Source of the DNA: Octopus vulgaris
Lineage: Eukaryota
Assembly (NCBI GenBank): GCA_951406725.2
Contig: OX597815.1
Span: 130,448,001 to 130,512,000, forward strand
Direction of reading: 5' to 3'
Length of the DNA stretch: 64,000 nucleotides
Shown: positions 1 to 25,247 of the stretch, piece after piece
Numbering within the stretch: position 1 is the first letter of the stretch
Layout: each line of letters starts with the position of its first letter
Made by a program: the position numbers and the translations under genes
The notes under the pieces: generated by a model
Told to the model about the DNA's origin: nothing
Database searches by the model: none
The model's input: only the letters and a program-made list of their open reading frames with translations

Positions 1-1894
1 AAGAACCTTAAAGAGAAAGTGGAAGAACCTTAAAGAGAAAGTGGAAGAACCTTAAAGAGAAAGTGGAAGAACCTTAAAGAGAAAGTGGAAGAACCTTAAA
101 GAGAAAGTGGAAGAACCTTAAAGAGAAAGTGGAAGAACCTTAAAGAGAAAGTGGAAGAACCTTAAAGAGAAAGTGGAAGAACCTTAAAGAGAAAGTGGAA
201 GAACCTTAAAGAGAAAGTGGAAGAACCTTAAAGAGAAAGTGGAAGAACCTTAAAGAGAAAGTGGAAGAACCTTAAAGAGAAAGTGGAAGAACCTTAAAGA
301 GAAAGTGGAAGAACCTTAAAGAGAAAGTGGAAGAACCTTAAAGAGAAAGTGGAAGAACCTTAAAGAGAAAGTGGAAGAACCTTAAAGAGAAAGTGGAAGA
401 ACCTTAAAGAGAAAGTGGAAGAACCTTAAAGAGAAAGTGGAAGAACCTTAAAGAGAAAGTGGAAGAACTAAGAACTTAAAGAGAAAGTGGAAGAACTTAA
501 AGAGAAAGTGGAAGAACTCTAAAGAGAAAGTGGAAGAACTCTAAAGAGAAAGTGGAAGAACTCTAAAGAGAAAGTGGAAGAACTCTAAAGAGAAAGTGGA
601 AGAACTCTAAAGAGAAAGTGGAAGAACTCTAAAGAGAAAGTGGAAGAACTCTAAAGAGAAAGTGGAAGAACTCTAAAGAGAAAGTGGAAGAACTCTAAAG
701 AGAAAGTGGAAGAACTCTAAAGAGAAAGTGGAAGAACTCTAAAGAGAAAGTGGAAGAACTCTAAAGAGAAAGTGGAAGAACTCTAAAGAGAAAGTGGAAG
801 AACTCTAAAAGAAAGTGGAAGAACTCTAAAGAGAAAGTGGAAGAACTCTAAAGAGAAAGTGGAAGAACTCTAAAGAGAAAGTGGAAGAACTCTAAAGAGA
901 AAGTGGAAGAACTCTAAAGAGAAAGTGGAAGAACTCTAAAGAGAAAGTGGAAGAACTCTAAAGAGAAAGTGGAAGAACTCTAAAGAGAAAGTGGAAGAAC
1001 TCTAAAGAGAAAGTGGAAGAACTCTAAAGAGAAAGTGGAAGAACTCTAAAGAGAAAGTGGAAGAACTCTAAAGAGAAAGTGGAAGAACTCTAAAGAGAAA
1101 GTGGAAGAACTCTAAAGAGAAAGTGGAAGAACTTTAAAGAGAAAGTGGAAGAACTTTAAAGAGAAAGTGGAAGAACTTTAAAGAGAAAGTGGAAGAACTT
1201 TAAAGAGAAAGTGGAAGAACTTTAAAGAGAAAGTGGAAGAACTTTAAAGAGAAAGTGGAAGAACTCTAAAGAGAAAGTGGAAGAACTCTAAAGAGAAAGT
1301 GGAAGAACTTTAAAGAGAAAGTGGAAGAACTTTAAAGAGAAAGTGGAAGAACTCTAAAGAGAAAGTGGAAGAACTCTAAAGAGAAAGTGGAAGAACTCTA
1401 AAGAGAAAGTGGAAGAACTTCTAAAGAGAAAGTGGAAGAACTCTAAAGAGAAAGTGGAAGAACTCTAAAGGAAAGAAGAAAGAAAGTGGAAGAACTCTAA
1501 AGAGAAAGTGGAAGAACTCTAAAGAGAAAGTGGAAGAACTCTAAAGAGAAGTGGAAGAACTCTAAAGAGAAAGTGGAAGAACTCTAAAGAGAAAGTGGAA
1601 GAACTTTAAAGAGAAAGTGGAAGAACTTTAAAGAGAAAGTGGAAGAATTAAAGAGAAAGTGGAAGAACTTTAAAGAGAAAGTGGAAGAACTTTAAAGAGA
1701 AAGTGGAAGAACTTTAAAGAGAAAGTGGAAGAACTTTAAAGAGAAAGTGGAAGAACTTTAAAGAGAAAGTGGAAGAACTTTAAAGAGAAAGTGGAAGAAC
1801 TTTAAAGAGAAAGTGGAAGAACTTTAAAGAGAAAGTGGAAGAACTTTAAAGAGAAAGTGGAAGAATTTTAAAGAGAAAGTGGAAGAATTTTAAA
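1..1894. repeat. 22-bp minisatellite (AAAGAGAAAGTGGAAGAACYYT), about 86 copies, runs off the window start
   Basis: Direct tandem units; variants ending CCTT, CTCT, CTTT and TTTT occur in blocks. Confidence 0.98.
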
Positions 1895-2497
1895 TGAGTC
1901 AAACAGAAAATAAATTTATAATTCTATGGTGCTAATTGTTTTCTGAGGCTCAAAGAGAGGGCTGGGTCCATTACCTTTGTAAGCTCTCCTAAAACCTATG
2001 AGATCGATATCATTAACATTCCTCTTGAAACTGAGTCAATACTAGCGAGAAATACAAGCAGAGAGGGAATTCAAGAAGGAAGACGTTCTAGGAAGGAAGG
2101 ATTGGGTGTAATTAAGAAGGGGGGCGATGGGGAGAGAAAGAGAGAAAAAGAGGGACAAAGCGTTAGTAGAGGTGGCACAATTCCAGCCAGAGCCAGTGAG
2201 GAGACACCATACCTGTGAGACATTAGGCTAGAATGTGTCTAATTTTACCGCAATAAGGAATTAGATGTTTTCCCGCCCTGATCAAGGCGATCTTAGACGA
2301 AGCGGTATCCACCGATGGCATTCGTTTCCTGTGTATCGTTAACGAAAACTCACAGTGCCTAATATATTTTTTGAAAGGTTCACGATTTGAGGGCGGTTTG
2401 GTTGCAATATTAGCATGTCAAGTCGTCATGTGAATAGAAAGCAAACCATATGACCTAGACACGTCTCAGTTTTAATCAAAATTTAATTTCTACTAAC

Positions 2498-2554
2498 GTT
2501 TATTTTCCGTTGGTGGTGGTATAACTAATGCATCTCGTGTTGAAGCGGTTTTAA
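2498..2554 (-). CDS. array micro-exon type A, 57 nt (KTASTRDALVIPPPTENK)
   Basis: TTTTTTTCTAG acceptor, GTTAGT donor, phase 1-1; paralog of 5015-5071. Confidence 0.62.
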
Positions 2555-3835
2555 CTAGAAAAAAATTAAAATCAGAAAGCAAGTGACAAGCTAAATTGAA
2601 CATCTTATTCACGAACAGCCTTAAGGTCTTAAGTGGATTTTTTGTTAGTGGTGTTACTGATTCAACTTGAATTGTGGTTTTTGTAGCTAAAAAGTTAATT
2701 TCTGAGCAACGAGACCATACATTTGTTTTAAATGAAAAGTCATTACTATTGTTCAACGGTGAAACTGATTTTAGAAACTAAAAAAGAAATGAAATATCCT
2801 AAGTCTTGCAAATATTTTTCAATCTGTTGAAGAATTTGAGACAAGATTGGACATCGCTTCATATCTTTCTTGAAGTGCAAACAATCGAAGTGAATACGTC
2901 ACGAATAGAAGGCAAGCTAAATCTAAAGTTCTACGGCACTAATCTGCATTTTCTTTTCTCTCTACATGTTTGGTCTCGATGAAGACCGGCTATACTCTTG
3001 TATCTTCGCAAGCGCTCCTAAATCAACGAAGCCGATGTTATTAGAGAGTGAGTTCAGAGGGCTGAGAGTCTTGGAAGGAATTTGCTGAGGGCCTAGTAGT
3101 AAAGGCACATGACAGTGGTTAAGGTATTCGGCTCACGACAGCAAGTTCGATTCCAGGAGATTCGTTGCGCTATTGAGCGAGATACTATCTCAGCTGGGGA
3201 CAATGAACTATAATTCAAAGGGTCAGCATTGTCACATTCTGTATCACGCTGAATCTTACTGATAACTATGCTAAATGTACACATGTTTGTGGAGTGCTCA
3301 CTCACTTGCATGTTAATTTCACGAGCAGGTTATTCCGTTGATTTGATCAACTGGAACCCTTGTTGTAACTAACCAGAGTGCCAGTAATTAGTTGGACCCA
3401 AATAGAGCGATGAGAAGAGAAGCGATAAATAGGATGGCACAGCTTCAGTGGAGATGACACGAGCCCAGCCAGACCCGTGGAGTAGAGACCGTTATAGTTG
3501 AGACAGAAAGGGCAGAGCGGCGGGATAGTATGCTGGAGCGTATATGCAACTTCATGCCAGAGAAAATAAGATTTTAGTATTGTCGCCCCGATGGAGCAAG
3601 CCTATTGTGAAAAGCATTTCACCCATAGTAAGTCTTTTCCTGAGTGAGAGTAACTAAGACCCACAGAATACTATGTCTTTTCTGTCATGTAGTTCGTAAT
3701 CTGAGGGCAATTTAGTTTTATTCAAGCATGCCTAGCAATTATGTTTTCAAAGTAACAAGCAAACCATATGATCTATAAATCTATATTTCATCTCTACATG
3801 ACTATTGTTTTAATTAGAATTTAATTTTTACTCAC

Positions 3836-3880
3836 GTTTACTTTCTGTTGATGATTTAAACAGAACTCTCATTTTAGTAT
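3836..3880 (-). CDS. array micro-exon, 45 nt (TKMRVLFKSSTESK)
   Basis: CTCTTCTAG acceptor, GTGAGT donor, phase 1-1. Confidence 0.6.
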
Positions 3881-5014
3881 CTAGAAGAGTAAAATTAAAT
3901 TAGGAATAAAAAGACGAACAATATGCAAACTTTTAAATTGACATTTCGTCCGTGTTTTATTAAAATTTTTACTCACTTTTTTTTATCCAATGGTGAAATA
4001 GTGACCGTAAATTTAGCAACTAAAGAAATTAGATATTCTCTGCAGACATGTAAATAGTAATTTTAAATCTATATCAGCATTAAAGACTTAAAGAGAAAAA
4101 ATAGGTATTGAGTCGTTTCGTATATATCTATAAGTATAACTTAAGTGGATAATGCACGAGCAAGAAAGAAGCTAAATCTAAAAGTTCAATGGTCCTAATG
4201 CTGAGTCTGAAGGCAGTGCCAGAGTCCATGTATCTCAGACTCCGAGACCGGTTCTTGAACCTTTATAAATCAACGCCAGCGGGATATATGAACAGTAAAG
4301 GACTTCTATGAGGTTTACATTCCAGAAAGGGAAGTTTGGGTGTAGAGGGCCTGTGAGAAAAGACACGAAAGCACTAGTGGTTAGGATATTGCACTCATTT
4401 ACAAGATGGTTTCGATTCCCAGATCGGGTGTTGTGCTCTTGAGCAAATTACTTTTTCCAGCTTCACTCCGCTGTAAACCAGTAACTATGATATGGACTGG
4501 AGTCCTATTCAGGGGGAATGTTGTGGTCTAGGTCATCAATACGCCACGCAAAGCAAGTGAGCGACTATGAATCATAGGACTCGAGGCTAATGTGCAGGGG
4601 TTTGATGGCAATTGGACACAAGTAGGATAATGAGATGGGGAGAGATAGGCTAGCAAAACCTGGAGGTGACATGAGCCCAGCCAGATCCGCAGAGCGGAAT
4701 ACAAGTATGTTTAACTTTATACCAAGAAGGAACTTGGCATTTTCATTTGTCATCCTTGATCGAGCAGATGTAGGATGAAGTGGGTTGCAGCTATGACCAG
4801 TCATTCTTTTCCTGTGTACAGGTAACAAAGGCCCAAAGTATCCATTGCATCTTTTTTCTAAGGTGAAAGTTCGTGATTTGAGGGTGGTCTGGCTGCAATA
4901 CAAGCATGTCAAGCAGTCATGTGAAGTTAACAGAAAGCAAAGCATATGATCTATAAATCTAGATTTCATCCCTACATGTCTCAGTCTTAATAGGAATTAC
5001 ATTTTTTTACTCAC

Positions 5015-5071
5015 GTTTATTTTCTGTCGGAGGTGGTGTTAATAATACATCTTGTGTTGAAGCAGTTTTAG
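5015..5071 (-). CDS. array micro-exon type A, 57 nt (KTASTQDVLLTPPPTENK)
   Basis: TTTTTTCCAG acceptor, GTGAGT donor, phase 1-1. Confidence 0.7.
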
Positions 5072-5152
5072 CTGGAAAAAAAATTACGAAGATCAGAAGG
5101 CAAGCGACAAGCTAAATTGAACATCTTATTCACGAATAAGATCTAAACTTAC

Positions 5153-5206
5153 ATCGATTTTCATTTGGTAGTGTTACTGGTTTAAGTGGAGTTGAGGATT
5201 TTGTAG
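5153..5206 (-). CDS. array micro-exon type B, 54 nt (TKSSTPLKPVTLPNENR)
   Basis: CTTTTTAG acceptor, GTAAGT donor, phase 1-1. Confidence 0.68.
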
Positions 5207-5548
5207 CTAAAAAGGATTAAAAATTAAATTCTGAACAAAGAGACCAAGTAACAACTAAATTCGACGTTTTATCTGTACTCATCCATGAATATTAGGTTTA
5301 AATCAGTTTACTTTTCTTGTTCAATGGTGAAAGAATTTGAGCTTGAGTGATGGAGTTTATTGAAAGGAATTTCATCAATAGGACAATTTTAGTTTTAATT
5401 GGAATTTATTTTTTACTCTCGTTTATCTTCTGTTGTTGTTGGTGGTGTAAGTGCTGTAGCTAGAGTTAAAACGGTTTTAACTTGAAAACTTTACAAAGAT
5501 CAGAAAGCAAGGTTAAGTATAGATCTTAACCTTAAGATCTATACTTAC

Positions 5549-5602
5549 ATCGATTTTCCTTTGGTGGGGTTACGACTTTAACTTGGGCTGTGGTTTTTAG
5601 AG
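5549..5602 (-). CDS. array micro-exon type B, 54 nt (LKTTAQVKVVTPPKENR)
   Basis: TTTTAG acceptor, GTAAGT donor, phase 1-1. Confidence 0.65.
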
Positions 5603-5905
5603 CTAAAACGAATTTGAAATTAAATTCTGAACAAAGATCAAGCAACAACTAAAATGGACATTTTAGCTGTACTCCTCCATTAATATTAGTTTTAAATGAG
5701 AAGTTTACTTGTTCAATTGTGGAGGAATGAGTGATAGGGATTTTGTTGAAAGTAATTTCATCTACTTGACAATTATAGTTTTAACTAGAATTTTTACTCG
5801 CGTTTATCTTATCTTGGTGGTAGTGTGAGTGCTGTAGCTAGAGTTTAAACGGTTTTAGCTAGAAAAAATTACGAAAACCAAAATAACCTTAATATCTATA
5901 CTTAC

Positions 5906-5950
5906 ATCGATTTTCCTTTACTGGTGTAACTTGAGCTGTGGATTTTGCAG
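5906..5950 (-). CDS. array micro-exon type B, 45 nt (AKSTAQVTPVKENR)
   Basis: TTTTTAG acceptor, GTAAGT donor; in-frame 9-nt deletion relative to the 54-nt copies. Confidence 0.65.
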
Positions 5951-6339
5951 CTAAAAAGAATTTTAAATTAAATTCTGAACAAAGAGATCAAGCAACAACT
6001 AAAATGGACATTTTAGCTGTACTCATCCTAAAATATTAGTCTTAAATGATAAGTCTCTACTTTACTTGTTCAATGTTGAAAGAGTTTGTGCTCGAATGAT
6101 AGAGATTTTAGTGAAAGGAATTTCATCCCTACGTGAACTTAATTGTTTTAATTCGAATTTAATTTTTAGCAATGTTTATCATTTGTTAGAAGTGTAACTG
6201 ATACAGCTCCAGTTAAAGCGGTTCTAGCTAGGAAAAGTTAATTATGAAAAATGAAAAACCAGATTTTTTTTTTTTTAATGAACAGCTCATTTTATCCCCA
6301 AATATTAGTTTTATTTTAAAATAATTGAACTAAACTCAC

Positions 6340-6372
6340 ATTTGTTTTCTATCCGTGGTTTAACTGATTTAG
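6340..6372 (-). CDS. array micro-exon, 33 nt (KSVKPRIENK)
   Basis: TTTCAG acceptor, GTGAGT donor; ends in ENK like the other array exons. Confidence 0.55.
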
Positions 6373-7839
6373 CTGAAAGTAACCATTTTAGTTGCTTAAA
6401 TAAAAGTTAAGAAATCTATTAAGAGATAGAAGTTAATTTTTCAAATTAAAAGTCTTGAGGTGAAGGCTGCAGGGATATGTTAGCTTTGACGTCTGTCGAT
6501 AGCCACCAACGACGTAAGTAAATTTACTATGAAAAATCGAAATTAAACCATAAATTTACTATATCCACAGTTCAATTCATCCATTTTAATTTGAATTCGT
6601 CGGAAATTCAATTAAATTTACTGACTTTAAAAATACTCTTCAATTATAGAGTTGCTATGCATGGAATAGCAATTAGTTTGTATTGATCATTAAGCGTTTG
6701 TGAAAAAATGTTATTTTTCCTGTTTCAAAACAACTTTTGGTTTTCATTGTCTATTTTCGCCTTATTAGATAGCTGATTATTCCGACTCAAAAATTATTCA
6801 ATTGTTTAAAATGTTGCGTCAAACTGTCAACGATTTCAAATCAGTCAAGAAATGCAAAATGTTAAAAAAAATATCAGTTATACTAACTGGTCTTTGGTAC
6901 TTTCATTTCGGTTTTTTCATTAGATGCAAAATTATCTAGTTTAGAAAGTCAAACAAAACATTGATTACAAATTCTTTAATGCAAATGAAATAAAATGCAA
7001 GTCATCTACCTAATCTGAACTAATAAGTTATTTCATAATTCCTGCGATAAGTTTATTCTAACAAGTTGGTGATGTTCAACTAAATATTGAAATTTGTCAA
7101 TCGTCTACTTAAACTAGTGATCAAATCCTAACAGTCTTTAGATTCAACTATCAACCCTGTTTTTGAAATATTTTTACAATCCCAAAAGAAAACGTTACAT
7201 TGATTTGATAAAACGATGACTCAAAGTTGATGGTGAATCCAGTTGTTACATTATCTTTCAGCTATGTAATGTGAATAGATTTAGACTAGGCTGAAATCAA
7301 TAAATACGTTCGAAATGGTCTATTTGTTAAAATAGATTTGTAAAGAAAACCTAGAATTGAAGATTTTCGAACTGCAAGATAAATATGTCAATATTGCCTT
7401 GCTTTGGCTTAAATCCTCAATTATTTGATAGAATCGTAAGATCCCCGTCATGATATAACGTGTGATACATTTTAAGACATGGAGGAGCTCATCTCTATTC
7501 AGGTCTGACAACAACCGATTTCTACCAGAAATTAGAAAACAAAGAGTAAGAGAATGTCGAGATGACTAGTATATTATCACCCTGAAAGTATGACAAGCAA
7601 AGTTGGCTTCAGTGAGATTTAACCCAAGAGCGTCGACAGCCGAAGTGACTATCGCAAATCAATCTCTAATGACTGCTAATCGTCCGTCTCTCTTCCAACA
7701 CGTGTCGACAAAACCATCTTTAATCATTCAACAACCTTTAAGATTTAGGTTAAACTGAAAACCAAAACAGAATATAGGGTTTATTAGATTTGAATATATA
7801 CTATGTCATCTGGATTAAGTTTTGGGTAGCTAAGCTCAC

Positions 7840-7863
7840 CTGACTCTTCATCGGTAGAAAAAT
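7840..7863 (-). CDS. candidate acidic micro-exon, 24 nt (FSTDEES)
   Basis: TTTTTTTCAG acceptor, CAG|GTGAGC donor, symmetric phase 1. Confidence 0.65.
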
Positions 7864-8490
7864 CTGAAAAAAAATAAATGTTGACATTTAAATATTCATG
7901 AAATGTTGAAACTGAACATATTTCTTTGCCGATTAAATAATGCGGGCTTATTCTCTGCAACAGATATAGAGGTTTTAAACTTAATGTGGGCCGGTTTATC
8001 ATATGTCGAAATCTAGCTCCAGATGACCTTTTAAAAATTGAAGATTTCAGAAATGGAGTCATGAAAAGAGAAAAAATAGCGAACTCGCTTATTGAATTTG
8101 TTCAGAGTAGAAGGAACTTGCACAATGTGGCGCGCATTGCGATTGAGCTAAAAAATTACGTGTTCACAAATGGAATTTGTAAAATGATCATGTCTGTAGA
8201 CTAATTTTTCCTTCATTTGAGAAAGCATATAAATATCTGGCAGATTTGAAGTCAAGTGGAAATTCTTTAATGATGTAAACCTGAACGAATGTGATTACAA
8301 TAAGTTGATTTTTTTCCTAAATACATAAATATTGAAATTGTTTTCAACAAAATACTCTGGCTTAGAATAAAGACAAGAATTGACCGAGAAAATTCACAAG
8401 CGTGAATGAAGCGTTGAATATCCTTTTGTATTTAACAAAAGAACTTAGCTATTAGCTACGGTTGGGTATTGTAGGGTCATAGAAACTTGC

Positions 8491-8535
8491 TCCATTTTGT
8501 GCTCAATTGAAGTGCATAACTTATAGCAGTAAAAA
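8491..8535 (-). CDS. candidate phase-1 micro-exon, 45 nt, with GC donor (FTAISYALQLSTKW)
   Basis: TTTCAG acceptor, GCAAGT donor, symmetric phase 1. Confidence 0.3.
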
Positions 8536-8799
8536 CTGAAATCTTGCTACAGACTTAATTGTCAACGTTTGATCTTAGTAAAACTACCTTCCATAGATTA
8601 GGACAGAAGGTTTGCATATTGAAAAAAGTATTCGAATTATTGCAAGTTAAAAGGAAGTAGTTCTGAGAAAGAATGGTTAAGTCGGACATAATGGTAAATC
8701 AATACAAATGGAGATTTTGCAGAAACGCATCTCTGGTCACTATTTTTTTTTGAAAGCACAAACACACGTACTAGAGAGAGAGAGAAAGAGAGAGTTTAG

Positions 8800-9120
8800 A
8801 AGTTTGCTTCCCAACACCACATGGTTCCGGGTTCAGTCCCACTGCATGGCACTTTGGGCAAATGTCTACTTTAGCCTCGAGCCGACCAAAGCCTTGTGAG
8901 TGGATTTGGTAGACGGAAACTGGGAGCCTGTTGTATATTATATATACATGCATCTATGTTCCCTCACCCACCATCGCTTGACAACCGATGATTGTGTTTA
9001 TATATATCCCCGCAACTTAGCAGTTCGGCAAAAGTGATCGATAAAACAAGTCCTGGGGTCGATTACTGCGACTAAAACCCTTTAAGGCGGGCTCCAACAT
9101 GGCCGCAATCAAATGCTCGA
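8800..9120 (+). mobile_element. tRNA-derived octopus-type SINE family 1 (other copies at about 13190, 19800, 25750, 27705, 30000, 32455, 34070, 38325, 54235, 57085, 62800, 63310)
   Basis: Recurrent GTGGCTGTGTGGTAAG...GGTTCAGTCCC head, internal microsatellite and GCATGGCCGCAGTC tail. Confidence 0.85.
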
Positions 9121-9125
9121 AAGAT

Positions 9126-9173
<48 letters not shown>

Positions 9174-9205
9174 GAGATAGAAAGAGACATTTCGTTCTTG
9201 CTCAC

Positions 9206-9316
9206 CTGAATCGCTAAAAGAATCGGAATAGCTACTCCATGAATAACAATTGAGAATCATGTCATCACTGTCGCTTGAGAAATCACTTTCTGAAGATGAC
9301 GCGGGTTTTTTCATAG
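9206..9316 (-). CDS. candidate Ser/Asp-rich phase-1 exon, 111 nt (MKKPASSSESDFSSDSDDMILNCYSWSSYSDSFSDS)
   Basis: TTCTCTTAAAG acceptor, CAG|GTGAGC donor, symmetric phase 1, protein-like acidic composition. Confidence 0.65.
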
Positions 9317-9952
9317 CTTTAAGAGAATGTTTAAAAGTAACGATTAAAATCTAACCATTGTTCGAAAAAAAAAAAAAAAAACATTAAAAAATAATAAAAA
9401 ACTAATAGGGTGTGGTACAAGAGTTTCGAAGTTATATTGACAGCAGTTTCAAGAATCGATTTGAAAAGTCGTCGTTGCAAGTAATTTATATTTGTACATT
9501 TAGAGCTGGTGTTTATATTTCAAAGTTTTAATATAATGCACACAAACTTATATCCGAATTCAATTAGAGTTTGTAATTGGTGATTCAGATCAACGAGACT
9601 AGATTTATGAAATAGACAAGAGCTCCTGTGAAGATTTCTAAACAACTTTAGCAAGAATTAAATGCCAACAATTGGGAATCAAAAATGGTTCGCTGTTTAT
9701 CTTTGGCGTTGTTTAGTTTCAGGTCAGCTATGTTCAAACAAATCTGATCATAGGAATTCCATCTCAGACCATCTACTTCCTACCAGTGTATCTAATATTT
9801 CATTATGTAATGTCTTTTACAGACTGATTCACCTGCTGTTCCTAGATGGAGCCATACCATTCTCCCACTGGCTGACTTACCTTAAGTCGCTCGAATATTA
9901 GATTTAACCCTTCATTAACTAAAAGATACCGCTGCGTTACCGTTATACTTAC

Positions 9953-9979
9953 TTGAAACTAATGAAATTTTTATACTTC
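9953..9979 (-). CDS. candidate phase-1 micro-exon, 27 nt (SIKISLVS)
   Basis: TTTTAG acceptor, GTAAGT donor. Joining it to the 75-nt exon would create TGA across the junction. Confidence 0.35.
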
Positions 9980-10078
9980 CTAAAATGTTTTTCAAACAAG
10001 CAAGAGTTAGGTCCTATAAGAAGCTCAACTGGTGCATAATTCTGAGCGCCAGAAAGTCGAGGACCCTCTTAAACTTAC

Positions 10079-10153
10079 ATCCAGAAAAGTCTTGTTCAAC
10101 CTTGCAAAATTTAAGGCTCTGACCAGAATGTTCTATGCTTGTGAAAAACAGAT
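10079..10153 (-). CDS. candidate phase-1 exon, 75 nt (LFFTSIEHSGQSLKFCKVEQDFSG)
   Basis: TTTCCAG acceptor, GTAAGT donor, symmetric phase 1. Confidence 0.55.
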
Positions 10154-10959
10154 CTGGAAATGTAGCATTAACGGTTTCAATACACTGAATGGATTTAAAC
10201 AATCGAATATTATATTCAGACATGAAGCTAACAGTCCGTTAATCTGTGGGCTGGCTTAGCAAATGTCGAAATCCAACCTCAGTCTGTCATTTGTGGCAGT
10301 TACACTTTACAACACCCAAAATTCTTTAAAGGATCGGACATTTCAGTTAGCAAGTCTCATGAAAATGTACAAAAATGGTGAACTCGCTTACTGAATTTAT
10401 TCAATTTTATTGGAAAAACTTGTCCAGTGTAAACTCGGAACTACGTGGTCGCGAAGAGAATTTGGTAACCATACAACCCTGTCTAAATATTTCCTTTATA
10501 TGAGAAAGCAGATTTGAAGTAAATTGAGTCAAAATTAATGATAGCATTAGAATAAGACAACTATCAAAAGGGACTTCCGTTAAGAAACTTAAGTGTATTC
10601 GATTGGTATAGTTCTGATAATGAACAAATGAAAATAAATGTAACTTCGAAATTGGGTAAAATAACTTCCATGTTGTAAATTAAAAATTCTGGTATCCAAG
10701 ACTTGAATGAAAGATAAAACAATTTTGATCTTTTCCGATTTATCCAAGAGATAAGATCAATTTGTTTTGCTTTACAAGTCAACGTTTGGTTTCCAACTAA
10801 AAAATTGATTTAATTGTACATTTTCTTCTAATAAAAAAAATGGTCTAGCTATAGTAAACAGAATTAATCATTTTTTTTTTACATTTTATTGACTATAGAT
10901 GAAGTCCTCTTCAAAGGTGGTTACTCTTCAGTGATAACACTTCATATCTAGATTATTGA

Positions 10960-11049
10960 GCTAACATTTAATAGGCTAACATTTAATAGGCTAACATTTA
11001 ATAGGCTAACATTTAATAGGCTAACATTTAATAGGCTAACATTTAATAG
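10960..11049. repeat. 15-bp tandem repeat GCTAACATTTAATAG x6
   Basis: Six perfect copies. Confidence 0.97.
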
Positions 11050-12215
11050 ACACATACACAAAACGGGTTATAAAATAAAGTCATCGAGGAAATACAAAGC
11101 TACAACATTACCACTTTCTCAAAGAACATTTGCAACATAAATCGAGTAAACTGGTTTCCACTTAGAACTGAACGATAATTAGATTGGGTTTTCTTTCAAA
11201 ACAGCGGCGATCCTAGTTTTGAAGTCCAAGCAAAGCTACTAAACTTTCTGAATTGCATTTCTATTTTAGTGTTACGTTGAAAAGACCGAGAAAGTCTTAA
11301 TACAAAAAATTGTTTAAGTATAAAGGATGTCCAATCTTAGAAATCTAAGAAAGAAAAAAAAGAGCAGGGTTTTATTTTATCACAGACAAAATTATCCGAT
11401 CGATCTTTTATACATCACATAGAAATAAGCTGCCTGAAAATCCATTTCGTCTAAATGTTTTGCAAAACGGAATCCTTGACCCATTTCAATTCGGGAAGTA
11501 ATTTTACATTGTTGTACACATTTATATTTAGATCTGACAGTATTCATAGACAAATACAGATTAATTTACATTTTCAGCCTTCGAACAGCTAGAATTAAGT
11601 ATTCTTTCTTGGAAAGAAAGAATGCTGAGATATTCTGATTTTTTCCACATCAGTAACCCAGAATTCAAGTAAATGAAAGACTAATCCCAAGATTTAAAAC
11701 GGAAACAATTCATAGTTGTATTTCATATTAAAGATATCCGCTTGCTGTAAGAAATAAGCTTGGTAGAATATATTAAGTATTGTCTAAATTTCTTTTTATA
11801 GTTGCTTATCAAATTTGATAACCAATCTAAAGAAACCAAGATAATCCTCCTTGTTATACGTAGTCGGATCTGATTAGTAAAGACCTGGGAAATGGAAGCA
11901 ATTTTCAAACAATTTGCACAAAATTAATTAGATGGCTGTTTTATCTTCGAAAATTTACAGTTTGTAAAGGTTTAACTTTTCCGGTTTCATTTATTACAAT
12001 CAAACATTGGTCAATTCCGAAAGCTCAAATGGGATAAATATAATGGGGTAAAAAAAATTAAATTTGCGTTTAAATTACAAATGTTTGAAATCAAGAAATT
12101 TAAGCTGTCTTGATTCTGTTTTTGAAACCATCAAATTGAAGTGTAGGATTTTCAAGGGTTTTAACACTTTAGAGTAACAATGAATATGGTGACTGTCTAA
12201 AATACATATACTTAA

Positions 12216-12398
12216 CCCTTCGTGGGCCGGCGGGTGTCCCTTGGGGCCCCAGCAGATTTTAAAAGTTATGCAACTTTTACAATTTTTATTTAAGTGATTT
12301 TAAATCTGACTTGTCAATAGTTTATATACAGTAATACCTCGATTTTCGAACACCTAATCGCAAATAAATCGTACTTTATTTATTTTTATTTATATATT

Positions 12399-12440
<42 letters not shown>

Positions 12441-12857
12441 CGTGATTTATTCGTGATCTGAGTTGTTCGAAAACCGAGGTCCTACTGTATGCACATGCAA
12501 TTATTTAGTTATAAATTTCCAGTCATATGGATGTTATAAAATATGGTCATTAGGATTTAACTGGACCCCATTGGTCTTTTACGAAATTTTTGTTCTTTTT
12601 CAGATATTCTGATAAACTATGTTAATTTTCTTCGTATTTGTACTGGTAGGAATCGATATACTTTTTCTTTTATTCTATATTTAGTGCCAAATGTATAGTT
12701 AATAAAACTTAAAGTGCTAAATTTCTTGTTTTGAATCATGCACTAACATGTACAAGATTTTAAAAAATTACTTTATGGATAGTGCGAAAATGCGCAAAAA
12801 TAAAAGGGGACTCCAATGGCTTTTTGTGTAATTCCAACCCCACCGGCCCTAGAAGGG
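12216..12857. mobile_element. non-autonomous piggyBac-like element
   Basis: TTAA on both sides; terminal inverted repeats CCCTTCGTGGGCCGG / CCGGCCCTAGAAGGG. Confidence 0.85.
12329..12487. mobile_element. Tigger/pogo-like MITE nested in the piggyBac-like element
   Basis: TA target duplication; inverted ends CAGTA..ACCTCG.TTTTCGAAC; (TA)n core. Confidence 0.8.
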
Positions 12858-13011
12858 TTAATAGATTTCACTCCGAAATCGTAAATACAGCTGTCAACTA
12901 CTGTATAAGTAAGAGACTACAAATGAACTCAATATTCGCAAAACACCAGGCAATAAAGTAAGGTTTAAGAGATTTTGCAAGAAATGTGCAGAATGTACTT
13001 AAAAAATTTAC

Positions 13012-13038
13012 CTTTCTTTAATGTAATCAGTACGAAAA
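13012..13038 (-). CDS. candidate phase-1 micro-exon, 27 nt (FVLITLKK)
   Basis: TAG acceptor, AG|GTAAAT donor, symmetric phase 1. Confidence 0.35.
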
Positions 13039-14190
13039 CTAATTAGAAATAGCTATGTAGTGAGAAGGAAAAAACTATTAGCCAATGGCTATATTTCATC
13101 TGGTAAATACGGGAGACAACTATGTTTCGGTCTTATTAAATCTCTTCAAAGCAGGCTTCGTACTCTGAAGTAGAGATCAAAGAATCTCCCACCCACATGG
13201 GTTCCAGGTTCAGTCCAACTGGTAAGTGTCTTCTATAGTCCCGGGATGACTAAAGCTTTGTGATTGAATTTAGTGGACGGAAACTGGATGAAGCCCGTTA
13301 TGTGTATATGTATGTCTTGCCGCCGCTTGACAACCAGTTTTGATTTATTTACGTCCCCGTATCAAGCTTTAAAAATTAGCACTGGTTGGGGCGGGGTCTA
13401 TTTGTTCTAAACTCAAGACAGTGCCTCAGCATGGCGCAGTGCAGTGACAAAAGCTAAAAGCAAATTTCAAGGAACTACATGAAGAACTTGGTTAATTTAA
13501 TACTAACTCATTTTATGGTATGGGACTTATCCATTAGTTTCTTGTTAATTTCTTTAACAGTTTTGGACAATGAAAGTCGTTTGACCATCTTATCGCAAAC
13601 GTCAATAACTAAAATATTTTGCAATACAAATGGGCAATGTTGATATTATCCACCGCTTTTCGAAGAAGGAAGTCAACTTCGGCTTAAAGAATTGATGTAT
13701 CTACTTTGTAAATCTGAAATATCAAGCTCATGTACAGACATTCCAGAAGTCATAGCGCAAGGGATCTTCCATGTAGGTGGAAGGACAACATACAGTGCAA
13801 TATCTACCTCGGATTTTATGTACGGTTACTTAGCCCCAGATCTGCCCTGACTGAACAGATCGGAAAGCCATTCGAACCGGGACAGTTAATCTGATTACCA
13901 AACAATTTTATTTATTTTTAACGACGATAAAGTACGATTCGAGAAACCTGACCGATATTTCTAGCAACTCAAACGACCACATATAGGTTCATTAAACCTA
14001 GACTAAGAATGTTTAACAGTTTGTAGAATAAACTAATTTAGAATCTTGGAAAAGCTCAATTCTCAAATGTGACTGATAAAGACCAATACTTATAGCAAGA
14101 ACAATTTTGATAAAACCCCGAAAGCATTGACGAATTTGATATTTTTTAAAATGCCAAGTTTTCAACAATTTTAGAAAAATTTATAAATAC

Positions 14191-14259
14191 CTTCTATGGT
14201 AATTTTCCACGTTTTGGAAATATATGTTCTTAGTTCCTCTTCAATTCTTGGATTAAATT
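14191..14259 (-). CDS. candidate phase-1 cassette exon, 69 nt (FNPRIEEELRTYISKTWKITIE)
   Basis: Strong TTTTTCTTCTCTAG acceptor, AG|GTATTT donor, symmetric phase 1. Confidence 0.55.
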
Positions 14260-14592
14260 CTAGAGAAGAAAAAATTTCCAATATTCCATATTTAAATGCC
14301 ATATTTCTTGAAACATGGTAACTATATATATCGTTGCTATTATGTTAAACTGTCGTATATCCAAATTCGGCGCTTTTAAAAATTTTTTTCAATATTTTTG
14401 CTTGCAATAGCCGGTTCTTTTGGTCAAACTATTTATCTTCAGCTGCCAATATATCAAACTGTCAGTGTAGTACAACGGTTTTGCCATGGAATGGTGAAAA
14501 GAAACAACGTTTTGGACTTACGATAATTTTGCATAATAACGAGAGAGAGAGAGAAATAGACTTTACATCATTAGAACTTACAAACTTCCAGA

Positions 14593-14735
14593 CATGAAAT
14601 GATTTTTAACGGTAGAACACGAAGTAGCTCTAACTATAAGCAGCGCGTCAATATAAGGATTTTTTCAAACCAATACTTACGCGCAGTTATAGTGTTATCT
14701 ACTTACAGTTCTACCGTTAAAAACCAATTCGTATG
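14593..14735. mobile_element. small MITE-like inverted repeat
   Basis: TTTTTAACGGTAGAAC and GTTCTACCGTTAAAAA arms; a related arm occurs near 47968. Confidence 0.55.
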
Positions 14736-15627
14736 ATGTATGTGTGTCCACCCCACGCCTGCCGCCCGCCACGTTGAAGTTCATAAATTTGCCTGATTTT
14801 CTTTCTGCGGAAGGACTTGATTTGATACACGCATCCAAGTTGTCTCTCCACGCCGCTGATGTTTATCCACGAGAAAGGTCACTAATTTGGGTCTATACAT
14901 CCTGGAACTGGTGTCGTCGCATTCAGAACTCAGAGGACCAGAACAGACACAAGGCACCATGTCCAACTCTGAAACAGTTCCACTAATACAGCATCCTAGA
15001 TTGATACTATTTTTTAACGATACCTAGAGAAGGACAAGCAAAATCGATCTTTACAGGATTTGATCTCAGAAAAGATTTGGAACAAATATTCGAGTCATTC
15101 TAGACAACTATCTCTCTAGAGATGAGATTTAAGAGGTTTCCATATTCTGTAACCAAAAGGGAGTAATAGGCATTGATTTAGCCATGTTCGAACAGATGCA
15201 GGTCTGTGTACACTTAACAGTTCGGTTTCCAGACTTGATACTTTGGTACAACTCCTGTACCCAGAGGATTACTTCGTTGGTGAACATCGAGAAGCGTTGT
15301 TCAAACCACTTAAGACTCAGTTACCGACTGAACCCAACAAAAGTTGCCTGGACGGATTCTTGATTAGATACAGCTGAGGGGAAAATAACCAACGAAATTA
15401 GTAGAAATGTAGAATGGAAATTTCGAATACAATTTTTTTTTTCAACTTTTCTTTTAAAGTTTGAAATTAACAGATAAAACAGCAATCTTTTGTCTTTAAT
15501 AAAGGCCCGCGGAAAAGGGGATTAAAGACAAATTGATTTGCGGAATATATGGTTTCTATTTCTAGCCCATCGAATGACCTCGCTGTGACTTGTTCGCTTG
15601 TATCTGTTGCTGGAGACATCATTACCT

Positions 15628-15838
15628 AAGGCAACGAGCTGGCAGAAACGTTAGCACGCCGAGCGAAATGTTTAGCAGTATTTCGTTTGTCTACGTTCTG
15701 AGTTCAAATTCCGCCGAGGTCGACTTTACCTTTCATCCTTTCGGGTCGGTAAATTAAGTACCAGTTGCCAACTTGGGTCGATCTAATCGACTGGCCCCTC
15801 CCCCAATATTTTGTGCCTTGTGCCTAGAGTAGAAAAAA
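15628..15838 (+). mobile_element. SINE family 2 (other copies at about 17545, 20260, 33085, 45450, 46490, 49105, 55230, 55700, 63560)
   Basis: GAGCTGGCAGAAACGTTAGCACG...GAGTTCAAATTCCGCCGAGGTCGAC motif repeated many times in both orientations. Confidence 0.85.
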
Positions 15839-16232
15839 ATATCTACATTACCTAATAACGTAGCTGGGGTGGAGAGTCGCTTTTATGATTGCAACTTTTG
15901 TGTATTGTATAAGCCTGTATAAAGGGCGAGGAGACGGGGTCAGACAAGGGCTATACCATTGACCTTGTAATCAAAATTGCTACACAAGCAATGCTTTGAT
16001 CACATGCTTTTCTTGAAAAAACGAAAACACAGGAAACGATTTACGCAATGAAAAATAAATATTTTAGGTGAAAAAAAAATTAATCGTCTATAAACAAGAA
16101 AAACCTTACTATTCGCCTATCAAATGAGATTTATCGTAAAGTCTTGTTTCGTTCAGAAATGTGGAAATGAATTTCAAAGTAGTGATTGTTAGAGCAATAT
16201 AATGAACCAAATTTATAAAAACAATATTTTAC

Positions 16233-16280
16233 CCAACCACTCAGCATGAAGCTGCATTATTTTCTTCAGTTTCATCGTGA
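16233..16280 (-). CDS. candidate phase-1 cassette exon, 48 nt (TMKLKKIMQLHAEWL)
   Basis: TTTGCAG acceptor, GTAAAA donor; only the phase-1 frame is open. Confidence 0.45.
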
Positions 16281-16965
16281 CTGCAAACCAAACAATACGG
16301 AGAAAATGGTAACTTATACCGTCTGTATTTTTTTGCAGTTTGTGCAAGTGCTGTACTATTTTAATGAGATTTTAAGCGATGAGTGAATACCTGCTAGGCT
16401 TAATTTCAGCATTTTCAGGTGTAGGCCTGACAAAGGCTAGCCAAGCAGAAAAAATTTAACTAAAGCACCGAACAAGACACCGTAAAACATCTCGCCCAAA
16501 ACGTCAGCATCAAATTCATTACTCGTTTGTAATTAATATTCAAGATAATTTTAGTCAGAAACTAATTTGAGACAGTTTGTTTAATGTCTATGTGTTGCAT
16601 AAGCGATATAACTTTGTGAAATCCAAACTAAGAAAGAATTGGCTGAGTAGTTAATGTTCGCTCCGCAACTACATGGTTCCGAGTTCGACCACCCACCGTG
16701 CGATACCTTGGGAAAGGTGCGGCATTACTTTGGTTAGGGTAATATTTTCTGAATGGGATTCTACAGGCGTAAGCATATGTATTCTTGTGCAGATAAATAT
16801 TGGCTGCAGATCCGAAATAACGGCATTTTACGAATGTCCTTCGAGATCCGTCTTGCATGGAGTTATAGACATTCCCTTGTCACGCCTCGAAATGCAGTGA
16901 ACAACGAACTGGATCTCTGGAATCAGGACGCCATTATTCAATTGTATAAAATATAATTGCTAAAA

Positions 16966-17305
16966 CAGGGTCAGATTAAGATTAAGAGTCCTTTATTTCT
17001 TAAGATCTTGGTGTCCAATTATATATGTAATTCAAAACGTAAACAAAGCATAAATTGAATTTTTATTTTTCAAAATTGAACAAACTGTAAGATGAAAAAT
17101 GTTTACTTTTGTATACTTACATTTTTCTACTTCAATTGCAAAATCTGATCAAATCCTCACTATAACAGCAGAAACACTACAAAATATCTTTTTCGACCAT
17201 GTAAATTACTTGGAATGTTATTTAAGGACGTTTAAAGTGATTTCTTTTGTGCCGTAAACTATTTACTACTTCTGTGTCCCCCACTCATTTCCTTTGATGC
17301 CCTAA
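16966..17305 (+). repeat. dispersed repeat, second copy at about 49873-50290
   Basis: Colinear similarity between the two loci. Confidence 0.7.
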
Positions 17306-17987
17306 TAACGCGCAAATATAATGTAATTGTGAAGATAAAGTGCAAATCGAAATATTTAACTTTTACTGACGCGATAGAATATACAGTTAAAAAGAGCCCT
17401 GTATCACGAGATTCTGCTTGATGACTATTGAGAGTACAAGTGTCAGGAATACACAGCCACTGATTAAACAAGTGAAACAAAACCAATGAAATTAAAAGTA
17501 TTTGCTTTACAACAAATGGGATTTCAACGCAAAGTAATAATCACATTTTGGCACAAGGCCAGCAATTTTATAGGGAGTGGGGCAGTCAGTTATATTGGCC
17601 GCAGTATTTGACTGGCTCTTCTGTTATCAACCCCGAAAGGCAAAGTCGATCTCAGCGGAATTTGAACTCAGAACAGAATCTGAAGGGCCGCTAAGCATTT
17701 TGTCCGGCGTGCTAACGATTCTGTCTGCATAAATATTGGTTTCATATATTAGCACAAGGGCAATGATCTCGGGAAAGAGGGTAATTCTATTACATCGGCT
17801 CCAGTGCTCGATTGATACTTATTTTATTGAATTCTAAAGGATGAAAGGCGAAGTCGACCTCGGCGGAATTTGAACTCATTGTAAAGAACAAAAATGCCGC
17901 TAATCGTTTTGCCCGTCATGCTAACGAATTGGCCAGCTGACCCTACATGCCAACATAAATATTTTTTTAAAATGAACACAAAATTAC

Positions 17988-18198
17988 CAAATTTTTTTTC
18001 TGAAGGTTCTTTTACTTTAACAAAAGTACCGCCACAGATATTAGCATGGATACGAAACCATTTCTCCTTATTGGAAGGAGGCCTGTTTTGAGCTCGTCGA
18101 ATAACTCTATGCTCGTAGTTAGATTTTCGACATGGACCGTTACATTTCCAAACATGAGTCTGCAGATGGTGACATTCAGAATGGAATTCATGGAAAAT
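17988..18198 (-). CDS. SPRTN: SPRTN-like zinc-binding-domain exon (IFHEFHSECHHLQTHVWKCNGPCRKSNYEHRVIRRAQNRPPSNKEKWFRIHANICGGTFVKVKEPSEKKF)
   Basis: 211 nt, phase 0 to 1. C-x3-C...H-x3-C ligands, plus RAxNRxPS and CGGTF.K.KEP motifs typical of the Spartan ZBD. Confidence 0.94.
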
Positions 18199-19546
18199 CT
18201 GTTTCAGAAGAAAGAATATTTAGGCGATAGATTAAAATGTAACAGACTTTAGTCAATGATTCAATGGCAGACTATTCAGTAGTTTTCTTGTAAAATTGTT
18301 TTTGGAGAAGTAAATTTTTAAGCACGAAAAGCTATGGATATCATGTAAATATTGGGTAGAAAAACGCATTTAAAGAGAAAAGAAAAGAGAAAAGGGTCGA
18401 TGGATTCCCGTGCAACTCAAACTCACGTCTTATGGACAAGTTTCTAAAATCGATAGAGAAATTTCAAGGATTGTTTTGGTGTCTTTCATTAAACAATATT
18501 TACGAGACAATTCGATTAATTTTGTAGAAATAAAAGATATTAGATTATATTTTAAGAATTTTACTTAAATATAGTAATAGCCAATTATTAGAATTTGATA
18601 TCACGGTACTGACCGTGATATCGGTTGTTGGTCCCAATGCGCTTTGTATAGTTTTAGCCTTCGGACGATGCCGCCTTGCAGGTTAGGCGAGCAAGCCAAC
18701 ATTCCCCTTATCAGAAGATTCCATCGCATAGATACCCATTTACAACCGAATGAACTGAAGCGCAACGTGAAATGAAGTGTTTTTGCTCAAGAACACAGCG
18801 CGCCACCCTCGTCCTGGAATCGAACTCACGATCTAGCAATTGTGAGTGCAACACTAACCACTAGACCACGCGCCTTCACACAGAACTCCATATACTTACA
18901 CTTTGTAGTAAAGCTTTAGGTGATTACAGATGTCGCGTAGTCGACTTCATGAGTTTAAAGCTATTTTTACTATGTACATCATTTACTATGTGTATATAAT
19001 TTACTAGTATAGAAACCATTTTAAGTTTTATGAAATTTTATTCATAAAGCAGGTTGTAGCAGTAAAATGATTTAAAGAACATTGTATACAGTAAGCTTCC
19101 GTTGAGAATTCGGAGAGAAAATGCACGACATCAAACTGAGAAGAAAGCGCGATTGAATCTGGAGATTGTTACAGTTTAGAAAGCAATGTTTACATAGTGG
19201 TACTGAGTTCCATACAAATCATAAAAGGCCACACATTGCCCAAGTGCCGCAAGGTACTCTTGTCCGATTTTCAATAAACAGCGTCAAAAGAAAGATTGCT
19301 GTATTGCATTATAAAATGCAGCTGGCAGACAAACTCACCAATACACTTTTGTTATAAACAAGACTACGTTTGAAAGATAACTTACATTAAATATTTGGGC
19401 AATGCTCCAAACTAGCGCTAAATTGTTAATTTTTTTTAATGATTATCTTAAATTATATTTTCTTTGGCGCTGGTTTCTTACATTCTACACCAAATAACAA
19501 ACGCTGCCAGAAATTTACATAAATTCAATAAATTAGTTATAATCAC

Positions 19547-19621
19547 TTCTAGCTTCATTCCCGACCGTTTCTCAATTCTTTTCTTTTCCGCGTGGAATTT
19601 CGGGCCATGTTCTTGGTGCTC
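19547..19621 (-). CDS. SPRTN: SPRTN-like exon (EHQEHGPKFHAEKKRIEKRSGMKLE)
   Basis: Strong TTTCTTTGCAG acceptor. Third zinc ligand in HGPxF. GTGATT donor in phase 0 joins the next exon in frame. Confidence 0.88.
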
Positions 19622-21457: not shown

Positions 21458-21499
21458 ATTCTCCTTAGTTACCCAAAGATAAGCATGGATCATTTCGTG
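21458..21499 (-). CDS. SPRTN: SPRTN-like 42-nt catalytic micro-exon (HEMIHAYLWVTKEN)
   Basis: TTTTTCAG acceptor, GTAAGT donor, phase 0 to 0. Carries the HExxH zinc-protease motif HEMIHAYL. Confidence 0.95.
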
Positions 21500-22404
21500 C
21501 TGAAAAATGAATTTAAAATATTCTAAAATTATTTATACAAATCTAATTTATAAACCCAAATTAACAAATTAAATGTGGTACAATTTTATAAGAAATTAAA
21601 TGTATTATTGCACAAGGGGAAAGGTACATCGAACAATAGGGCTTCAGGAGTGAGTGCGTGTATGCGCCTCCGACTGGGCACTCCGGCTACGAGAACGAGT
21701 GTTCCATTTGATTAGATCAGCCTGCGCCTGAAATTAATGTGCAACTGACTAAAGCACTCTACAGTCACGTGAACCCTTAAGTTCTCAGAGATTCAGCATA
21801 ACAGAATGTTACAAGGCTGGTCCCTTTGAATTACAGATACAACTCATTTTTGCCTGCTGAGTGAACTGAAGCAACGTGAAAGTCTTGCTCAAGGATACAA
21901 CCTGCAACCTTACGATCGTGAGCCGGATACCTTAATACACACACACACACACACAGTATAGTTACAAGTGGAGAGAAGACAATATAAGGCCAAGAGAGAC
22001 AACCGGAAGCTTTATTTTGGTTGTTTCTTTTAGTCTGTCTAATTCCCCTCGTTTTTTGAAAGTTTTTGCTAAAACTAAAATTGAGTTTGATAAAATTTCA
22101 ATTACAGCAAAAACTGAAATTTAGGAGACTTAAACTTTAAGTAGAAAAAAAAATTACAAAATGATATTGAATATTATGAAAATTCAGTGGTGTGGAATGT
22201 GCGGACTGCAGAGGGCGGCCATTTTACATTTAATGAAGTTGGGTGGCCAATTTGGTTACCTCTTGCCATTATGAAAGGCTAAGAAACACTGAATAAGGAG
22301 ACAAATCTATGAAACTGGAAATTAACTTTACAATTAGTACTATGTGGATATATTTAAAGAGCTGGAACATTGGCAGTAATGAATATAAACACGGTTATAT
22401 TTAC

Positions 22405-22513
22405 CAGTAACGTCTCCAGTAGATCCTCTAGTGGTCTGAGTTCAAGAAGTGGTCGACTCAAAGATATATTGCATATCCTGTCTACGTCAGGTTGTAGGGT
22501 ACAACCAGCACAT
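22405..22513 (-). CDS. SPRTN: SPRTN-like exon (CAGCTLQPDVDRICNISLSRPLLELRPLEDLLETLL)
   Basis: T-rich AG acceptor, GTAAAT donor, phase 2 to 0. Resembles Spartan CAG...I.LS.PLL.LRP..DL.ETLL. Confidence 0.93.
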
Positions 22514-25083: not shown

Positions 25084-25247
25084 GAGGTCATTCGTTTGCT
25101 CCAGCTAATTCTTACATTTCCTGTAAGTTTGCAATAAAAATATTTCTCATCATAAATCGTAAATAATTGGTGAAGTAAAAGGTTTGCTTCTTTTTCGATT
25201 AATCCCTTTCTCGAAGAAAAGTCTTTTCTGTTGATATTAACCGGCAT
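25084..25247 (-). CDS. SPRTN: SPRTN/Spartan-like protease, first recognisable coding exon (MPVNINRKDFSSRKGLIEKEANLLLHQLFTIYDEKYFYCKLTGNVRISWSKRMT+S)
   Basis: Matches the SprT N-terminal pattern L..LF..Y...YF...L..V.I.WS.RMT. Ends in phase 2 at a GTAAGT donor. The frame stays open for about 19 codons upstream of the ATG, so the true start is uncertain. Confidence 0.88.

Follow-up and report, generated by a model that had tools for sequence, protein, structure and literature searches.

The locus examined here is a stretch of 64,000 nucleotides (the window, C2:130448001-130512000) in the 2.8-Gb genome of Octopus vulgaris, which carries on its minus strand a SprT-type protease gene whose zinc-binding domain (ZBD) exon is followed by a run of short exons. 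It raises the question of what these exons encode and how freely they are combined. An initial annotation, made from the letters alone, had read about 15 candidate exons in 2498-16280 as a modular, skip-tunable disordered tail of the protease. We found that the exon array is a linker to a second ZBD and not a protein tail, and that it is probably not a large combinatorial isoform system; only 4 of the 15 linker exons vary among annotated transcripts. Judged from the tree described below, the gene is a cephalopod-lineage SPRTN duplicate, an extra SprT gene beside SPRTN (C12) and GCNA (C30). It is single-copy in the genome and had already been annotated automatically as Spartan with several isoforms. 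The literature on SPRTN, SprT and GCNA in octopus, cephalopods and molluscs contained no description of it, most subscription papers and supplementary lists being outside the scope of this search. The more surprising feature is the two-ZBD layout, the combinatorial claim being weak.

The exon map was obtained by placing 12 database models (9 from O. vulgaris and 3 from O. sinensis) on the window and the 10 kb to its left, and the ZBD exons matched database proteins of these two species at 100%. The mapped total was 5 N-terminal exons, 15 linker exons, and 1 terminal exon, all on the minus strand, encoding in order the protease, ZBD1, a helix, a disordered linker, and ZBD2. Coding exon 1 (25084..25247) holds the ATG at 25247 and the first part of the SprT protease domain; its splice site is in phase 2, and the exon was exact in 12 of 12 models. 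Coding exon 2 (22405..22513) continues the protease domain, with boundaries in the models equal to those of the SPRTN gene on C12. The HExxH catalytic motif is in coding exon 3 (21458..21499) and the third catalytic zinc ligand, H110, in coding exon 4 (19547..19621), both present in the models. The ZBD1 exon (17988..18198) runs from phase 0 to phase 1, and its phase-1 end had been correctly read from the letters. A look to the left of the window for the terminal exon, which the initial annotation had proposed, yielded six further phase-1 exons in the models (C2:130447013-130440661) and a terminal ZBD2 exon with the stop codon (C2:130439326-130439166), none of them in the initial annotation. 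The terminal exon lies on the same strand, 8.7 kb left of the window, and was supported by the models, by Pfam, and by a search of the octopus's own genome.

All 15 linker exons are 24-111 nt in length, bounded by AG and GT, multiples of 3, and open in phase 1; together these symmetric exons make up 51% of the longest coding sequence. Nine lie inside the window and six to its left. The first three, at 14191..14259 (69 nt), 9206..9316 (111 nt, Ser/Asp-rich), and 7840..7863 (24 nt, the sole exon of 27 nt or less), were in 12 of 12 models. They are followed by cassette A (6888..6935, 48 nt), a repeat-family exon (5906..5950, 45 nt), cassette B (5153..5206, 54 nt), a second repeat-family exon (5015..5071, 57 nt), a linker exon at 3836..3880 (45 nt), and cassette C (2498..2554, 57 nt), which is a duplicate of 5071-5015; the three of these that are not cassettes were again in all 12 models. 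Cassette D is the last of the six exons to the left. The claim of about 15 exons within 2498-16280 thus held for these nine, and the remaining candidates are in no model; the candidates had not been listed, and their match to exons is by reconstruction. The first candidate, 16280-16233, was in none of the 12 models and has no paralog in the array.

Transcript evidence was obtained from four sequencing runs compared over 2400-21600, with joints read from contigs, which show presence and not absence. Run X4 contained eight GT-AG joints of this gene: 21458-19621, 19547-18198, 17988-14259, 14191-9316, 9206-7863, 7840-5950, 5906-5206, and 5015-3880; these are among the joints listed, beyond which there are 726 others. 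None of the eight was present in the DNA-like run X1. Coding exon 4, the ZBD1 exon, and the first three linker exons are thereby joined on both sides, and the joint 17988-14259 carries the transcript past 17988 into the array, as had been expected. Runs X5 and X14, RNA by guess, contained no joints of the SprT gene and were not used as evidence on tissue restriction. A search for runs with a 7-kb, mostly intronic query listed none of RNA kind, a result with no bearing on expression, since such a query may miss runs that cover exons alone. RNA editing in X4 was considered and rejected, as most of the listed letter differences were also in X1 and look like alleles. The protease, ZBD1, and the array were also united in all 12 models, of which 11 end with the whole ZBD2 and one (P0010) has another 3' end and a truncated ZBD2. 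All exons are one gene, and a single transcript leads from the exons of the protease into the array. The array could otherwise have belonged, with ZBD2, to a separate gene starting at an ATG at 9314 beside a short SprT gene; an O. bimaculoides model (P0006) begins at the Met of this ATG, and the acceptor of exon 9316 scores weakly. This arrangement is already largely refuted by the X4 joint 14191-9316 and by read-through in 12 of 12 O. vulgaris and O. sinensis models and 2 of 3 O. bimaculoides models, and is hardly credible.

The encoded protein belongs to the SprT/Spartan family, with PF10263 scoring 83 bits against a cut-off of 25.6, and residues H92, E93, H96, and H110 were invariant in 80 aligned rows. 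Pfam scanning of models P0011 and P0002 showed one SprT-like and two SPRTN_ZBD stretches. ZBD1 (PF22934) directly follows the protease and keeps all of its zinc ligands, C149, C153, H181, and C185; protease and ZBD together are 43% identical to human SPRTN. AlphaFold2, run on the 80-row alignment (mean pLDDT 69, pTM 0.55), folded the protease, ZBD1, a helix at residues 204-226, and ZBD2, with pLDDT of 82-86 over residues 201-220 and low confidence over residues 237-417. A fold search returned nothing beyond SPRTN (2 matches at E ≤0.001). The predicted helix is encoded by linker exon 1 (14191..14259), which is recognisable in all four orthologs. Net charge over residues 9-48 after the ZBD is 0 here against a median of +5 in 233 others, so that no basic region is seen at this place; the three orthologs have 0, -5, and 0 after ZBD1, and only 4 of the 233 others are at or below 0. 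The basic region is replaced by a predicted neutral-to-acidic helix.

Following the helix, the order of segments is as the initial annotation had described, with a Ser/Asp-rich acidic segment (12 D/E and 17 S/T in 46 aa) before a Lys/Thr/Pro segment (45 K/R and 55 S/T in 199 aa). The linker is basic overall, as it is in all orthologs (net +13 to +33). SHP, PIP, and UBZ4 patterns were absent after residue 200 from all nine paralog proteins tested, in agreement with the earlier reading; the same patterns matched 88 (SHP), 14 (strict PIP, hence a weak test), and 178 (UBZ) of 239 other proteins. What stands of that reading is one SprT gene in which a disordered region, encoded by symmetric phase-1 exons of which some are skipped, has taken the place of the SHP/PIP/UBZ tail. 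It had missed that the gene is a paralog and that canonical SPRTN sits on C12.

The SPRTN gene on C12 shares its first exon boundaries with the window gene; it has a canonical ZBD and a single tail frame of about 500 aa ending in UBZ4, and a separate GCNA-type gene on C30 (L021, near 16.383 Mb) has a 991-aa open frame consisting of a disordered region, a SprT domain, and a C-terminus. In a 22-row tree of protease plus ZBD1, the window gene grouped with proteins of O. bimaculoides and Argonauta hians and with P0016 at 100/99, apart from 18 canonical rows that included the C12 gene; P0016 is a long branch in this tree. By the support values of this tree the window gene is not orthologous to canonical SPRTN. 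In a 24-row tree of ZBDs, the ZBD2s formed one clade (100/98) and the ZBD1s another (97/96), and the duplication is therefore old. ZBD1 and ZBD2 of O. vulgaris are 41% identical, and ZBD2 is 63% identical to ZBD2 of P0016. Two ZBDs were present in 15 of 258 proteins examined, all in the clade of the window gene; the 258 were top matches (the best 120 of 467 and the best 150 of 1317) and not a census. Linker sequences of Octopus, Argonauta, and P0016 cannot be aligned with each other, and the repeat content of the linker differs in O. bimaculoides. The linker of P0017 (A. hians) has a separate Lys-rich tandem repeat with units of 10 residues and no relation to those of Octopus, which suggests independent linker expansion in that species.

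As the symmetric exons would allow most subsets to stay in frame, a combinatorial isoform system had been proposed. Four cassettes are indeed skipped among the 12 models, inclusion being 4 for A, 6 for B, 5 for C, and 10 for D; however, 11 of the 15 linker exons are in 12 of 12 models, 9 of 16 cassette combinations were seen, and the four cassettes together amount to 69 residues. The X4 joints pass over 16280-16233 (joint 17988-14259), cassette A (joint 7840-5950), 6372-6340, 5602-5549 (joint 5906-5206), and 4019-3977 (joint 5015-3880), and a contig leaving 3836 enters the next exon left of the window, skipping cassette C. The joint 5906-5206 includes cassette B. A direct 5906-5071 skip joint was absent among the X4 joints listed, and two contigs reach 5071 with a shared upstream exon end. 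In X4 bin depth, 16280-16233, 6935-6888, and 2554-2498 were at intron level (≤3%), 6372-6340 was at ≤15%, and the 5906-5206 joint was at about half of its neighbours; these values are a hint only, as contig depth cannot rank gene parts.

Chance was evaluated with 30 dinucleotide shuffles of 2450-17950 under strict and loose splice-site thresholds. Strict thresholds gave 8 open, symmetric calls in phase 1, where the shuffles averaged 1.0 ± 1.1 (maximum 4), with one call each in phase 0, in phase 2, and on the opposite strand; by this null, which had been suggested beforehand, the array is beyond chance. Loose thresholds gave 19 calls against 9.5 in the shuffles, i.e. half chance, and the caveat that some candidates may be chance hits was well placed.

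The exons with their flanks fall into two families, 72–84% identical and spaced 370–410 nt apart, and the repeated exon block is present at this locus alone in the genome. Copies outside the models comprised four dead ones, one frame-breaking one, and four intact unannotated ones. Repeat comparison and splice-site checks identified the dead copies at 6174..6227, 5421..5480, and 2633..2686, each with the donor GT lost, and at 5802..5858, with in-frame stops and a GC donor. The frame-breaking copy is 43 nt long (3977..4019). Two of the intact copies, candidates only and in none of the 12 models, are at 6340..6372 (33 nt, open frame, consensus sites) and 5549..5602 (54 nt, 80% identical to 5950-5906 including flanks). 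These observations indicate that the array grew through tandem exon duplication, with dead copies retained, and the birth and death of exons can be seen directly at the locus. Since the ZBD1 exon has a phase-1 end, only frame-neutral 1-1 symmetric duplicates survive; we infer that the phase-1 symmetry needs no special selection and that the end phase of ZBD1 alone accounts for it.

The repeat unit has a CDK-consensus site directly before a KEN motif (5906-5950, where the site is full; 5549-5602; and P0007). The KEN motif was counted once in the O. vulgaris tail, 3–4 times in O. bimaculoides (4 in P0007), and not at all in Argonauta and P0016; of 239 other tails, 62 contain it. The KEN box was rejected as a conserved feature, since it is not conserved beyond Octopus, and is a lead only.

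With the same gene and protein, the array may be a neutral, tolerant disordered spacer in which cassette skipping is leakage at weak splice sites. The four dead and one frame-breaking copies among the live exons fit this explanation, as do the linker sequences that do not align across the orthologs and the weak donors (score ≤0.9), found in 3 of 4 cassettes, A and C among them, against 3 of 11 other linker exons. Disordered regions made by tandem duplication of symmetric exons are also a known pattern, as reported in PMC3632108. On the other hand, the splice sites of cassette B are strong, the models of O. vulgaris, O. sinensis, and O. bimaculoides alike vary in cassette D, and the basic charge of the linker is kept in every ortholog. 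We give the neutral array a little less than an even chance; it is compatible with the domain-level interpretation of a protease with a linked second ZBD.

Three fragments elsewhere in the genome were examined as processed copies. One on C16 (L033:1527-1745, near 23.207 Mb) aligned without gaps over 219 nt at 89% and spans four spliced junctions of the linker, its path running through 3880, 2554, two exons to the left of these, and finally the copy at C2:130445663, which is unannotated. This path was the best of six tried, scoring 342 against 306 without the last exon, for which the match is 29 nt (E 0.004). By this alignment, the processed copy records inclusion of cassette C, and it probably also records a fifth variable exon that is missing from all models. 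The C16 copy adjoins a 17-bp tandem repeat, the unit of which resembles part of exon 2 of the SprT gene. A second fragment, on C25 (L022:1506-1617; 113 nt, 91%), spans the exon 2-3 junction. The third, on C6 (L004:1503-1598, 88%), was rejected as a processed copy, as it falls within one exon. Processed copies of this kind preserve older isoforms.

Annotation undercounts the exons, because the C16 copy has an exon outside all models and four intact copies are unannotated. This favours a system comparable to the schistosome micro-exon genes (MEGs), in which most of at least 15 exons are skipped in many combinations to give a selected variant pool, as do the symmetry of 15 of 15 exons, their large share of the coding sequence, and the fact that contigs drop rare forms, with so many joints beyond those listed. 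Against it, 11 of the 15 linker exons are constant in the models, the listed X4 joints follow one main path, no signal peptide is present, and all but one of the 15 exons exceed 36 nt. A pool of this type is very unlikely here, and the locus is probably not a new class of combinatorial gene.

What the protein does was approached by comparison with human SPRTN. SPRTN is a dangerous, promiscuous protease, restrained by its ZBD, its basic region, and C-terminal motifs. Inherited intron-less copies of a gene imply its expression in the germline or early embryo; by this established reasoning, which is not a measurement, the C16 and C25 copies point to expression of the SprT paralog mRNA at one of these stages. 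Human SPRTN needs its ZBD together with the basic region beside it. According to a preprint (bioRxiv 10.64898/2026.06.16.732584), ssDNA is recognised by the ZBD of the human protein and dsDNA by the basic region, with autoinhibition coming from an acidic linker (D157, E161); residues tested in the human protein include Y179/W197, R185, and K220-K223 (PMC7534798). Human residue numbers were transferred via alignment to PDB 6MDW. The positions of Y179, Y180, and G181 are aromatic, aromatic, and Gly in 74, 69, and 75 of 75 canonical proteins; in ZBD1 this loop is replaced by E/H/R, whereas in ZBD2 the Gly and the second of the two aromatic residues are retained. The D157 equivalent is Ser here, D in 64 of 75 others, and kept in P0016.

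The interpretation that we consider somewhat probable is that the gene encodes a predicted germline protease for DNA-protein crosslinks, with ZBD2 acting as a tethered DNA sensor on a flexible basic linker. With the basic region next to ZBD1 gone and the ZBD1 loop altered, a Lys-rich linker and a more canonical ZBD2 at the far end would restore a DNA reader of two parts, now remote from the protease and with the order of the parts reversed, and would stand in for recruitment through p97, PCNA, and ubiquitin. With its cassettes skipped, the tether of about 270 residues would lose as many as 69, possibly tuning its reach or charge, and much of the exon turnover in the array may be tolerated drift. 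A stronger form, in which ZBD2 and the basic linker gate the protease and regulated inclusion of at least five duplicated exons sets tether length, charge, and cell-cycle motifs, is quite unlikely; if such a splice-tuned tether in a germline Spartan of cephalopods were true, splicing would select the DNA structures or chromatin states that activate the enzyme. In either form, a paralog that has shed most SPRTN controls and gained a tethered second ZBD may offer a natural test of DNA-gate rewiring.

Several points weigh against the tethered-sensor interpretation. R185 and W197 are kept in both ZBDs and Y179 is lost in both; DNA reading by ZBD1 may thus persist, and ZBD2 departs in part from the canonical form. 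The kind and library of run X4 are not on record, and the 12 models were produced automatically and are not mutually independent. The link from the array to ZBD2 is model-based, because the X4 joints considered reach only as far as exon C2:130447013. The Argonauta model has no ZBD2 and three O. bimaculoides models (P0007, P0015, and P0006) have no ZBD1, in each case by real loss or model error. The processed copies indicate that some mRNA reached the germline or early embryo and are not proof of germline-restricted expression. Of the three O. bimaculoides models, the two longer ones run from the protease straight to the helix exon and have the distal ZBD only. In that species the distal ZBD alone may serve the protease if the loss of ZBD1 is real; otherwise an assembly gap or a cryptic donor would account for it.

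The paralog may also have left crosslink repair and become a loosely DNA-gated chromatin protease in gametogenesis, or a player in genetic conflict. The SHP/PIP/UBZ motifs, the basic region, and the D157 equivalent are all gone, and breaking the autoinhibitory linker raises the activity of human SPRTN, as stated in bioRxiv 10.64898/2026.06.16.732584; in Drosophila obscura, amplification of SprT within Gcna is a candidate for a sex-ratio driver, according to bioRxiv 10.1101/2025.05.14.653954. However, D157 is retained in P0016, the gene is single-copy and old, and two ZBDs with R185 and W197 point to continued DNA control. We regard this departure from repair as unlikely.

Other features of the region were noted. 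A satellite of 22-bp units occupies window positions 1..1894 within an intron of the array and continues for about 1 kb more to the left, giving approximately 2.9 kb with graded unit variants (window 1-1894 and L005:9040-10000). By eye, a broken retroelement-like frame with a CCHC zinc-knuckle pattern lies on the minus strand at 26400-27600, about 1.2 kb upstream of the ATG, and a long ankyrin-repeat-like coding stretch (L006:1-1500, plus strand) belongs to a neighbour gene converging on the SprT gene.

Compared with human SPRTN/Spartan/DVC1 (PDB 6MDW and 6MDX; PF10263 and PF22934), the octopus protein has the same protease and ZBD, HExxH motif, and zinc ligands. It differs in lacking a basic region, SHP, PIP, and UBZ4 and in having an altered ZBD1 loop, a shorter N-terminus, and a second ZBD at the C-terminus, and its tail region is encoded by 15 short exons in place of the one long reading frame of SPRTN. 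With GCNA/ACRC it shares a SprT domain and extensive disorder, with an acidic patch of Ser and Asp in the disordered region. GCNA has its disordered region at the N-terminus, plus an HMG box (PMC11210505), whereas here the disorder is C-terminal and net basic and the zinc domains are of SPRTN type; with a protease beginning near residue 25 and a ZBD as the last domain, the layout is not that of GCNA/ACRC. The likeness to GCNA that had been drawn from the letters is compositional, applying to the 46-residue acidic stretch, but the linker as a whole is basic and the true GCNA is the gene on C30.

Schistosome MEGs encode secreted proteins mostly from very small symmetric exons (PMC4350168 and PMC10526429), in a size range of 3–81 nt (PMC10526429). 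The octopus gene resembles Schistosoma MEG/SmVAL6 in its run of 10–20 short symmetric exons and in-frame skipping, and SmVAL6 likewise couples such a run to a folded domain (PMC4350168). Its exons are longer, with 1 of 15 at ≤27 nt, 8 of 15 at ≤51 nt, and 14 of 15 within 3–81 nt; most are in all models, and the two systems have no homology. The N-terminus is charged, with no hydrophobic stretch by inspection, and the octopus paralog is likely nuclear rather than secreted. The proposed likeness to MEGs is one of exon geometry only, a schistosome-type pool being very unlikely.

A parallel is found in Drosophila, for which PMC11210505 describes repeated, diverged, testis-enriched Spartan duplicates (the mh, CG2694, and CG11322 families). 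In both lineages an extra SprT gene stands beside SPRTN and GCNA and shows fast divergence and a changed regulatory C-terminus. The octopus gene is of independent origin, older, and single-copy. A duplicated ZBD or a short-exon linker is not described for the Drosophila duplicates in the part of that paper examined, and the germline link is shown for them there and inferred for the octopus paralog. Recurrent Spartan duplication, documented in Drosophila in the literature found, extends with the octopus gene to cephalopods.

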